Below are positions 27,506 through 63,087 of a stretch of DNA of 64,000 bases, piece after piece. Position 1 is the stretch's first letter; each line of letters opens with the position of its first letter. Below the pieces are notes generated by a model that worked only from the letters and a program-made list of their open reading frames with translations, was not told the DNA's origin and ran no database searches. This stretch comes from Octopus vulgaris. Its lineage: Eukaryota. The stretch lies in contig OX597833.1 of the NCBI GenBank assembly GCA_951406725.2, positions 16,864,001-16,928,000 of the forward strand, written 5' to 3'. Position numbers and translations under genes: made by a program.

Positions 27506-28544
27506 ACATACATATGTGTGTGTGTGTGTGTTTTATGGAGCTTTGATTTTTATACTATCTGAAGTTTGCTGCATTAGTGTTTTTCTGCCCATCGCACAAA
27601 TCCAAGACAAGCAGAGTGTGTTTGTAGTTGTGTGGGGGAAAGCACAAGCTCAAATAAATCCATATATAATTGGTACTCCGTCCGTTACGATGACGACGAC
27701 GACCACGAGGAGCCCAGAAGATCCGATCAACGGAACATCCAGCTCGTGAAATTAATGTGCAAGTGGCTGAGCACTTTACAGATACGTAGTACACTTAACG
27801 TAGTTCTCAGGGAGATTCAGCGTGACACAGAGAGTGACAAAGCTGACCCCTTGAAATACAGGTACAACACATTTTTGCCAGCTGAGTGAGCTGAAGCAAC
27901 GTGAAATAAAGTGTCTTGCTCAAGGACACAACGCGTCGCCGGGAACTGAACTCGCGACCCCACGATGGTGAGCCGAACATCCGAACCACTAAGCCACGCC
28001 TCTTTATATGTGTGTGTGTTTACTTGTGTGTGCATTTATATATATCTATATATTTATCTCTCTGTTTATCTCCCTGGCTATCTATGAATGTATAGTTCTA
28101 CACAGAACTATCTTTTACGGTAGAAGACAACACTTGCACAAGGTGCCGCACCAAGGGAGTGAACCCAAAACCATACGTTTACAAGTCTGGATTCTTAACC
28201 ACATAACCATGCCTGCATCTATACGGAAAAGATGATGCTACATAGATGTTATTACAGGCATTCAAGGTTTCCGCGAAGCACAGCATTTGCTTATGCTGCC
28301 TTGAGCATGTCATCACCTCTTGCTCCTTATCACTCACTTTGTCATGCTTATTGTGAAACAGATTTCCACTTATCAAGTCAACAGCTTTACTTATGTGCAA
28401 GAGATGATAGCATACACCAGCAAACTGCTTGTTATTGATTTTGTTGTTGCTGTTGTTATTAGTGTTGTTGTTGCTTAATCTCATTCAGATCTCATTGTGC
28501 AAGTCTGTGAGCGAAGTCACAGCAGCTGCATTATCGCATCTTTT

Positions 28545-28601
<57 letters not shown>

Positions 28602-28691
28602 TATATATATGTGTGTGTGTGTGTGAGCGCGTGTATCGTTGGCGATTTTTTTTCTCCGTCTTCCCTTCCTTGGACTTTTCCTTTTTGCTAT

Positions 28692-28726
28692 ATTTCTGAC
28701 GAAGAGCTCCGCTCGAAACGTTAAAT
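28692..28726 (+). ncRNA. Minimal type I hammerhead ribozyme motif in a Penelope-like short element (28627-28830)
   Basis: ATTT-CTGACGA-A-GAGC(TCC)GCTC-GAAA-CG-TT-AAAT: stem I ATTT/AAAT, stem II GAGC/GCTC, palindromic stem III. Confidence 0.8.
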
Positions 28727-28827
28727 CCTCCTTCCTTCTTTCCTTCTTTCCTGAGCGTCCAATAAGACTATATTTGTTCCACGTCCTCGCGTTGTTGTGT
28801 TTTGTCTTTGTTCATTTTCGGATTAAC

Positions 28828-28893
<66 letters not shown>

Positions 28894-28917
28894 CTTTTCT
28901 ATTGCACTTTTTATAAT

Positions 28918-28962
28918 ATTTTTGATAAGGTTCGTTTTTTCAAGAACCGAAACATGTAAAAT
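28918..28962 (+). ncRNA. Minimal type I hammerhead motif, U3-A8 core variant
   Basis: ATTT-TTGATAA-GGTTC(10-nt loop)GAACC-GAAA-CATG-TA-AAAT: perfect stems I and II, palindromic CATG stem III, GUA cleavage triplet. Confidence 0.7.
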
Positions 28963-29138
28963 TCATAAGAAAATTAAAATTTATCTAATATAGTGGCGTT
29001 TTCAAACTTCTTTTTTACAAATATATACCCACTCGTATACGATCTACTCTTATTATAAATATATAGATCGCCATATTGATTCGCTAGCCTCTGCACGCAT
29101 TTTTTTCTCTCCTTCTTTCTGTGTTTCTTCTCTGTGTA

Positions 29139-29176
29139 TCTTTCTGTTGAAGAGCGTAGGCTCGAAACGTTAAAGA
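29139..29176 (+). ncRNA. Minimal type I hammerhead motif, CUGUUGA (A6U) variant, in element 29065-29306
   Basis: TCTTT-CTGTTGA-A-GAGC(GTAG)GCTC-GAAA-CG-TT-AAAGA. Confidence 0.7.
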
Positions 29177-29303
29177 CTTGTTTTATTTATATTCCTGAGC
29201 GCCATACTAATACAATTGTTTGTTTGTATTCCACCTGCCTTCGTCTTTTGTTTATTTCCGTAAACCTGCCTTCGTCTTTTGTCTATTTTCATAAAGCTTC
29301 CCG

Positions 29304-29357
<54 letters not shown>

Positions 29358-29547
29358 TCAAAAGACATACTAAGTATGTCTGCCTGCTAGATTAGTATGT
29401 CCTTTGATTAATTTTAATCCCTCGGCTATTTAATGCTATTTTTTTAGCCTGCTATCGCCTGTGTCATTGACTCTGTTATTATCACTTTTAAAATAGTTAC
29501 ATTGGATAATAATAGAATTAATGACACCTTCGTAAATTAATATATAT

Positions 29548-29617
<70 letters not shown>

Positions 29618-29780
29618 AGAATGGAAAGTTCTGTATATACGTGGGATAGGTATATAAGAAAGAAAAATCGTTTGATCGAGAAACCGGTAGTTATTTAATT
29701 TGTAATGATGTAATATGGCCCTAATATCACCATAAATTTTATTATACACACTTTCTGTGACTCTCACATTTCTTTTCTTT

Positions 29781-29881
<101 letters not shown>

Positions 29882-30140
29882 CTACGGTGAGCTGGCAAAA
29901 TCGTTAATAGAACCGACAAAATACCCGTAGTTCTTCTGGTTCTTTTCGTACTGAGTTCACATATCGTCGAGGTCGATTTGCCTTTCATCTTCCCGGGGTC
30001 GATAAAATAAGTACCTATGAAGGACTAGGATGGGTGTAATCCCCGCCCCTCAAACTAGCTGATCTTGTGCCAAAATTTGAAGGAATTTATACAGAACAAC
30101 ATTATCCGAGTGCTGGTATAATTCTTTCTATTATAGGCAC

Positions 30141-61009: not shown

Positions 61010-62575
61010 AACCAGAGATTTACCAACAATTTAAGTCACGCAGTTCGACCATAAAACGTCGTCGTGAAGTAGGAAACTTGGTCAGCGATTTCCTTGTCAT
61101 TTGACTGCTTCTCAGATTAATCAAAGAGTTGCAGTCTTCTCGTCATGGAAGAGAACATTGGCTACTGAACTTTCCTTGTGCAGATATATCCAACTAAAAC
61201 GGTAATAGTTAAGGCGGCGAGCTGGCAGAAACGTTAGCACGCCACGCCGGGCGAAATGCTTAGCGGTATTTCGTCTGCGTTACGTTGTGAGTTCAAATTT
61301 CGCCGAGGTCGACTTTGCCTTTCATCCTTTCGGGGTCGATAAATGAAGTACCAGTTACGCACTGGGGTCGATGTAATCGACTTAATACCTATGTCTGTCC
61401 TTGTTTGTCCCCTCTGTGTTTAGCCCCTTGTGGGTAATAAAGAAATAGGTAATAGTTAGCACCCAATGGAAACAGAAAATCCATCCCCAAACTTGGACTA
61501 CACCTAAAAAATGTTATTCTCTTCGTTTGATTGGATATAGAGGGTGTCTTTTATTATGAACTTTTAAGCCAAAACGAAATGCGGAGAATATTTGTCAACT
61601 CTTTTACTCTTTTACTTGTTTCAGTCATTTGACTGCGGGCATGCTGGAGCACCACCTTTAGTCGAGAAAATCGTCCCAGGACTTATTCTTTGTAAGCCTA
61701 GCACTTATTCTATCGGTCTCTTTTGCCGAGCCGCTGAGTTACGGGGACGTAAACACACCAGCATTGGTTGTCAAGCGAATTTTAGGGGGACAAATGCACA
61801 TATATACATATTTTTTTTCTAGTTTCAGCTCAGAGCTGCGGCCATGCTGATGCACCGCCGTTTATATATACATATATACGACGGGCTTCTTTCAGTTTCC
61901 GTCTACCAAATCCACTGACAAGGCTTTGGTCGGCCCGAGGCTATAGTAGAAGACACTTGCCCAAGGTGCCATGCAGTGGGACTGAACACGGAACCATGTG
62001 GTTGGTAAGCAAGCTACTTACCACATAGTCACTCCTACGCCAACTGGAAAACATTGGGCAGAAATGTGCAGGAAAAGCAATTGTCATTTGTTAATCTTAA
62101 ATGGATGTTACTCTTATACGACAACGCAAGATCACAAAGTGCCCAAATCACTCAAGTACTTAATCTATCGACTCCGAAAGGATGAAAAGCAAAGTCGACC
62201 TTGGCGGAATTTGAACTCAGAACGTAAAGACAGACGAAACACCCATAAGCCCCGGCACTCATGTAAAGTTTTGCCTCATCTTCTTCCTTATTTTTACTGA
62301 CCTTGCTCCACCTGACTTTCATCTTTTCAGGATTTGTAACATTATTGGGAGGGAAAACCGTTTATCATTTTTGAAGTGGTTAAAAAAAGGATATTTAGTG
62401 TTTCGTTACTTCGAAACCTGAAGAAATTTACGCCCGTAGGATCAACAATTTGCGAAATAGATGTGATTATGTTCTCAATAATGAGAATAAATATCTTGAT
62501 TTTAAATATTGTCAATTAAGACCGATGAAGCATTTGTTTCTTGAAATACGATAGGACCTTCTTTCCAACTTAATA
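61010..62575 (+). pseudogene. Mariner transposase remnant split by SINE insertions
   Basis: Fragments PKLGLHLKNVILFV*LDIEGVFYYELL (~61485), DNAR (~62120) and VLPH..P..DLAPPDFHLFR (~62270; YSPDLAP-like). Confidence 0.7.
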
Positions 62576-62913
62576 TATAAATTATATATAGTAATACAGG
62601 CGCAGGAGTGGCTATATGGTAAGTAGCTTCCTTACCAGCCACATGGTTCCGGGTTCAGTCCCACTGCGTGGTACCTTGGGCATGTGTTTTCTACTAAAGC
62701 CTCGGGCCTACCAAAGCCTTGAGTGTGAATTTGGTAGACGGAAACTTGTTTGACTAAAACCCTTCAAGTTGAACTACCTCGAACCCACAAGAGTAAACAA
62801 GAGAGACAGAGACAGGCAAAACAAGGAAAATGCCACTTGTATTTGAACACTATACAAATATTATTTTTAAAAAAACTTCTCTTTTAAGTTTTTAAAATTT
62901 AATTATTTAATTG

Positions 62914-62955
62914 TTACAGTTGAAAAAGTCTCAATGAGTGAAACCGGTACTGAAA
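62914..62955 (+). ncRNA. Degenerate hammerhead motif with U3-A8-type core
   Basis: CAG-TTGAAAA-A-GTCTC(AAT)GAGT-GAAA-CCGG-TA-CTG; stem I CAG/CTG, stem II damaged. Confidence 0.45.
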
Positions 62956-63007
62956 TGTTTTTTATAAAATTATTTTAGCATTTACTATCGACATTTTTTC
63001 CATGTAC

Positions 63008-63087
<80 letters not shown>

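Follow-up and report, generated by a model that had tools for sequence, protein, structure and literature searches.

We found that a minimal hammerhead motif in the Octopus vulgaris genome, at positions 28918 to 28962 of the stretch analyzed here (64,000 nucleotides, called the window), belongs to a Penelope-like element (PLE) family that carries U3-A8 throughout. The explanation that best accounts for the results as a whole, and in which we have good though not complete confidence, is that such family hammerheads are held at U3-A8 and probably cut themselves, slowly, after GUA by way of a dimer. The parts of the motif are listed below.

28918 to 28962, + strand: minimal type I hammerhead motif with a U3-A8 core (sequence and family counts)
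28918 to 28921 and 28959 to 28962, + strand: stem I, ATTT with AAAT (sequence)
28922 to 28928, + strand: core UUGAUAA (DNA TTGATAA), with U3 at 28922 and A8 at 28927 (sequence)
28929 to 28948, + strand: stem II, GGTTC (28929 to 28933) with GAACC (28944 to 28948), 5 bp including G10.1-C11.1, with a 10-nt loop
28949 to 28952, + strand: GAAA element of the hammerhead (sequence)
28952 to 28957, + strand: palindrome ACAUGU, predicted intermolecular helix III (two-copy cofold)
Between 28958 and 28959, + strand: predicted cleavage site after GUA (A17), placed by hammerhead numbering

The sequence confirmed that UUGAUAA stands in place of CUGANGA at this site, as an earlier sequence-only reading had reported. 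The motif has the type I core N3-U4-G5-A6-N7-N8-A9 ... G12-A13-A14-A15.1 with NUH, arranged around a three-way junction. A9 directly precedes G10.1, and the unpaired base that is usual, if not universal, in PLE minimal hammerheads is absent. The fold had otherwise been called perfect. Every named part does lie where it had been placed, but stem II was the sole helix that structure prediction returned for the monomer, whose fold was no more stable than those of shuffled sequences (z = -0.65). Stem I consists of only four A-U pairs, while helix III, too short for a monomer, could be closed only between two molecules: in the two-copy cofold, ACAUGU pairs between them with a duplex energy of -4.6 kcal/mol. 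Rfam gave zero hammerhead hits at E <= 10 in positions 28650 to 29250, likewise missing a canonical C3-G8 minimal motif there; its models do not reach such minimal forms. Among the 150 of 273 Rfam hits listed for the whole window, there were only microsatellite-driven microRNA look-alikes. Nonetheless, the motif is real and not a product of chance. A pattern built on its family (family A) and run with positions 3 and 8 left free had 428 matches in the genome, and the reversed control had none.

The two free positions were nearly uniform across this family. When we tabulated the 3/8 pairs, as the sequence-only reading had suggested, U3-A8 was present in 415 of the 428 matches; another 11 combined U3 with some other base at position 8, two were C3-A8, and none was C3-G8. 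No alternative letter was listed at 28922 or 28927 in contigs from four of four runs, representing four organisms, although such contigs drop rare variants.

The motif lies within a dispersed repeat. Searching the 2.8-Gb, microsatellite-rich assembly with positions 28888 to 29068 yielded 1,628 candidates, the best 40 of which were scored and proved 98 to 100% identical. The features of the host element in the window are as follows.

28832 to 28889, no strand: (TA)n microsatellite at the 5' junction of the element (sequence; other copies end in (TA)n runs)
28888 to 29068, + strand: pseudo-LTR piece and tail that form the 3' end of a family A PLE truncated at its 5' side (repeat copies)
29028 to 29068, + strand: optional PLE tail of about 40 nt (clustering of copy 3' ends)

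Copies of family A end in (TA)n, and inverted 5' duplicates are frequent. In the longer copies, the sequence upstream of the hammerhead codes for an RT thumb, a CX4CX2C linker, and a GIY-YIG endonuclease; the hammerhead lies about 490 to 940 nt 3' of the endonuclease match. A subfamily close to family A retains an open RT-endonuclease frame of 781 aa; GIY-YIG scored above its Pfam cutoff, and RVT_1 scored 26.8 bits, below its cutoff of 29.6. Counted from the cut site, the 3' ends of copies form two clusters, one at +68 (25 alignments) and the other at about +107 to +111. We read these two clusters, approximately 40 nt apart, as marking a PLE tail, since a tail of about 40 nt has been described (PMC8557442 and PMC11167929). 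By the sequence features given in PMC8557442, family A is a PLE of the Neptune/Nematis type, the label standing for either clade. The window copy is thus one truncated end belonging to a PLE family with coding capacity, as opposed to the 150- to 400-bp noncoding tandem units that serve as the criterion for retrozymes.

Some family A copies depart from this layout. In one subtype (L005, L006, L014, L021, L025, L044, and others), an internal duplication takes in the first half of the hammerhead. This recurring duplication stops 12 nt short of the cut site (13 alignments), and we do not count it as evidence of cleavage. In a single case, the start of a full-length element (L205:981) coincides with the helix III palindrome and lies 7 nt ahead of the predicted cut site; the tail and then the coding region follow.

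The window contains a second U3-A8 motif, which the sequence-only reading had described as unrelated and more damaged.

62772 to 63010, + strand: sister PLE lineage (F1/B), 3' end, carrying the second motif (79 to 88% identical to F1/B loci)
62914 to 62955, + strand: second U3-A8 hammerhead motif with a weakened stem II, U3 at 62920 and A8 at 62925
62920 to 62926, + strand: core of the second motif, TTGAAAA (sequence)

The description as unrelated does not stand, since this motif ends a sister lineage whose endonuclease shares a clade with that of family A. The F1 endonuclease is about 61% identical to the family A endonuclease, and two F1/B loci (L063 and L132) carry an endonuclease related to that of family A. 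As for damage, stem II is indeed weakened, but the weakened form is common to a subfamily rather than peculiar to one copy: its pattern had 14 matches in the genome, with U3 in all 14 and A8 in 12. It is a subtype of the abundant F1 family, the common form of which has an intact stem II (GGUC/GACC). At approximately 62505 to 62535 in the window, we saw by eye a decayed hammerhead-like stretch (CCGATGA ... GAAA).

To place these families, we used a tree of 26 endonuclease-containing sequences (325 columns), eight of which had no motif call. All of the U3-A8 and A3-U8 sequences fell on one 19-member branch (87/91, not starred), and the one C3-G8 PLE family that could be placed fell outside it. 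One member of the tree (L076) has a decayed motif; its label rests on how the motif reads and on the similarity of its DNA to that of the intact L254. Another locus (L213) was left out; its endonuclease is F2-type and the motif found about 950 nt from it is A3-U8, a pairing that probably reflects a second insertion. The abundant C3-G8 families C and D are absent from the tree because none of their parent frames could be tied to motifs in 50 loci. A first tree, made with a quick method only (77 sequences, 140 columns), was poorly resolved. Downstream of the endonuclease in a more distant PLE group (L168, L175, L178, L181, L182, and L185), scans found no hammerhead. Because all of the sampled U3-A8 PLE families belong to one clade, it is likely, judging from these sequences, that both window motifs inherited one ancestral U3-A8 change. 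The idea of a compensatory double change in two elements, taken as independent events, therefore fails, as both families sit in a single clade that is U3-A8 throughout, apart from the A3-U8 lineage described below. In one inverted pair (L216:1501), one copy reads UUGAAAA and its partner AUGAAUA, a second instance of a joint change at the two core positions, seen in a single copy.

U3-A8 is not rare in this genome, contrary to what had been supposed. Loose patterns gave 10,042 matches for U3-A8 (control, 1,407), a count that leaves out family A owing to a gap limit, and 10,961 for C3-G8 (control, 515). The corresponding counts were 10,651 for U3-G8 (control, 1,110), 1,449 for C3-A8 (592), and 4,061 for R3-Y8 (3,452). 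These genome figures are rough, as the patterns ignore stem pairing, the control is imperfect, and some sites were counted twice. Inspection of the first 100 U3-A8 matches by eye assigned 78 of them to six families that had been checked in loci; this and the other tallies of first 100 matches cover the start of one contig (C1) only. No G3-C8 family appeared among the first 100 R3-Y8 matches. Above control, roughly 10,400 canonical motifs stand beside about 8,600 with U3-A8, at least 664 of an A3-U8 family, and about 8,000 of a family with U at position 6 (U6). The expectation that CUGANGA descriptors miss U3-A8 hammerheads, leaving a large class undercounted, was thus borne out, and counts that rely on CUGANGA can be far off in this genome.

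The apparent excess of U3-G8 was rejected, because 77 of the first 100 matches were, by eye, U6 motifs read out of register. The U6 family (CUGUUGA; C3-G8 with U at position 6) has roughly 8,000 copies. In 20 of its loci (L256 to L275), all 22 motifs had C3 three bases upstream (21 CUGUUGA and 1 CCGUUGA). Versions with A6 or C6 are rare (three and two, respectively, of the first 100 C3-G8 matches), and our search for the parent element of the family did not find one. Among other departures from the canonical form, GCAA replaces GAAA in both copies seen of family H (L091 and L097), possibly a core defect at the level of the family, and in the F2 and A3-U8 families, stem II is just 2 bp long. 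Members of the U6 family and of another abundant family with canonical CUGACGA cores also occur in the window.

29144 to 29170, + strand: U6 family motif
24598, + strand: U6 family motif
59614, - strand: U6 family motif
28696 to 28722, + strand: canonical CUGACGA minimal hammerhead
13146, - strand: canonical CUGACGA minimal hammerhead

Between 28600 and 29350, three different hammerhead-bearing repeat ends lie head to tail around (TA)n runs.

Evidence for selection on the 3-8 pair came from families beyond the two window motifs. One PLE family carries A3-U8, with 664 strict matches and none in the control. Its first 100 matches comprised 95 A3-U8, two C3-U8, and one each of A3-C8, A3-A8, and G3-U8. 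Three of its subtypes, about 78% alike, keep A3-U8 while stem I covaries. Its loci (e.g., L096, L227, L233, and L276 to L295) lie outside the window, and no intact frame was found in 20 of them. The family's endonuclease nests inside the U3-A8 clade. We then compared 13 PLE families, using one natural copy of each. The 3-8 pair was Watson-Crick in all 13 (C-G, U-A, or A-U). U4-G5-A6, A9, and G12 were invariant, and stems I and II differed in sequence yet still paired. Helix III was palindromic in 13 of 13, G10.1-C11.1 was present in 11, and GAAA was present in 12. The flanks, meanwhile, have largely diverged: among 12 families, they aligned in 3 of 66 pairs upstream (200 nt) and in 3 of 66 downstream (80 nt), and those of family A aligned with 0 of 12 and 2 of 12 other families, respectively.

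A retrozyme superfamily with type I hammerheads in 353- to 362-bp tandem units shows further states, namely C3-G8, U3-A8, C3-A8, and U3-G8 (L125, L245, L246, L247, and L236 to L253), with young tandem arrays of both the C-G and U-A types. For a midpoint-rooted tree, we chose 23 units by hand and masked positions 3 and 8. A C3-G8 array and a C3-A8 locus were sisters nested within U3-A8 units (100/99, 98/93, 100/97), a U3-G8 lineage (L248 to L250) derived from U3-A8, and the state of the pair changed at least five times. Because related families have C-G, U-A, or A-U at these positions, pairing was likely kept by selection, to judge from the comparison of sequences. The sequence-only reading had argued for selection for activity. 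Selection on the fold is supported, by comparative data other than the two motifs then cited; activity is a further step that we only infer. More tentatively, at a little short of even chances, we suggest that the 3-8 pair flips among its three Watson-Crick forms in live mobile-element lineages of this genome, going from C-G to U-A at the base of the PLE clade, from U-A to A-U in one family, and, in retrozymes, returning from U-A to C-G by way of C-A.

Two accounts would explain the core without selection on the pair. Under one, the family is C3-G8, and both bases decayed in the window copy once it had inserted. All that favors this is single-copy decay in other families, such as the C3-A8 copies of family C. 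A C3-G8 consensus with independent decay was what the sequence-only reading had said would count against it, and since none of the 428 family A matches is C3-G8, this account is refuted and we give it virtually no weight. Under the other, a source element acquired both changes, at C3 and at G8, through AT-biased mutation, and the variant was then carried along. Each of the two changes is a transition in the AT direction, and the surrounding sequence is AT-rich (GC 0.30 for 28001 to 30000); mismatch lineages exist among the retrozymes (U3-G8 in L248 to L250 and C3-A8 in L253), and PLE copies multiply whatever the ribozyme of each copy. Against this, the core is fixed across families whose endonucleases are 50 to 65% identical and whose flanks are past alignment, and one retrozyme lineage reverted toward C-G. 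Moreover, the change from U-A to A-U takes two AT-neutral transversions, which AT bias cannot drive. The Watson-Crick family states that appeared across lineages with positions 3 and 8 free also count in part against mutational bias, which we regard as quite improbable.

We return to the reading that we prefer, a slowly self-cutting hammerhead retained at U3-A8. The change would have arisen once, in the ancestor of the PLE clade, and been inherited by both window motifs, with one lineage later switching to A3-U8. In hammerhead cleavage, the 2'-OH at position 8 acts as the acid. We propose that the 3-8 pair is retained for holding nucleotide 8 in place within the active site, in keeping with the role described for this pair (PMC3884650, PMC3088659). 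RNA of 28918 to 28962 likely cleaves itself at a slow rate, 3' of GUA, once ACAUGU has joined two copies by pairing. A dimeric PLE minimal hammerhead cleaves weakly, although the assayed family, Sm1, is not stated to be the U3-A8 one (PMC4209133). As in an anole PLE, cleavage may require the help of the element's own protein and would trim tandem PLE transcripts (PMC11167929). On this reading, the window copy itself is a truncated passenger, selection having acted on source elements.

Alternatively, the fold, including its 3-8 pair, could be kept as a structural signal, with cleavage negligible or dispensable. Protein binding, dimerization, and placing the start of reverse transcription are candidate roles. 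Several observations fit. In the anole PLE, where the hammerhead cut only with protein, mutating the hammerhead left insertion in vitro unchanged, and the cut site was not the end point of any RNA read (PMC11167929). In one type III construct, only a G3-C8 swap rescued activity, and the other double mutants in the region were low (PMC9901934). This genome also holds the very large U6 family and the GCAA family, as well as families with a 2-bp stem II; a change of A6 to C lowers hammerhead activity in Mg2+ (PMC3088659; PMC7151607). Finally, in the alignments of family A copy ends, no copy started or ended at the predicted cut site. However, the 3-8 pair forms part of the conformation that is catalytically active (PMC3884650), the anole hammerhead does cleave when its protein is present (PMC11167929), and G5, G12, and NUH (H17 not G) were kept in all 13 PLE family examples, as catalysis predicts. 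We consider a purely structural role unlikely, but a more serious contender than mutational bias.

This genome offers natural, amplified hammerheads in C3-G8, U3-A8, A3-U8, and mismatch states on related backgrounds. With them, the weight of 3-8 pair identity becomes testable in a natural setting, as does the question of whether the spread of a PLE depends on cleavage by its hammerhead. Should the A3-U8 and U6 families prove to be self-cutting, a functional core tolerates more than CUGANGA allows, and over half of this genome's hammerheads escape standard descriptors.

U3-A8 in PLE hammerheads is already published (2011, 2014), and the window motif is ordinary for a PLE. The covariation was reported as natural and active in vitro by Perreault et al. 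2011 (PMC3088659), and about 1,300 hits of PLE hammerheads with U3-A8 were reported in Schistosoma mansoni by Cervera and de la Pena 2014 (PMC4209133). The parts that a specialist might find new are the A3-U8 family and the retrozyme switch. We found no published example of A3-U8 for an animal or a retroelement, which does not establish its absence from print, and the accessible portions of PMC11014351 and PMC2920678 contain no 3-8 variants. The S. mansoni minimal hammerheads, as described in PMC4209133, resemble the window motif in being type I, with a short helix I, G10.1-C11.1, UUGAUAA or UUGAAAA cores, a palindromic helix III predicted to need a dimer, and a place in pseudo-LTRs, mostly as single truncated copies. 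The window motif differs in lacking the extra unpaired base after A9 and in the palindromic 2-nt insert that its helix III shares with the Drosophila type. Its host is of the Neptune/Nematis type, not Cercyon, and copies are far more numerous here. This genome also has an A3-U8 sister family, whereas the 56 examples in PMC4209133 include two U3-A8, one U3-G8, and no A3-U8.

With Neptune and Nematis, as described by Craig et al. 2021 (PMC8557442), family A shares an RT followed by a C-terminal GIY-YIG, a CX2-5CxxC linker, (TA)n targets, inverted 5' copies, a tail of about 40 nt, and a pseudo-LTR hammerhead. The genome also holds type I tandem units of 353 to 362 bp like those of animal non-LTR retrozymes (PMC7229834; bioRxiv 10.64898/2026.07.22.740005), and the window motif is not one of them. 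Some of these arrays are U3-A8 (L125; 5.5 copies, 99% matches), a form with no mention in the accessible portions of those two sources. Lastly, the compensatory pair is the same as that in PMC3088659, where it was rare and known from several examples; here, its numbers are comparable in magnitude to those of canonical C3-G8, and it characterizes an entire clade of elements.
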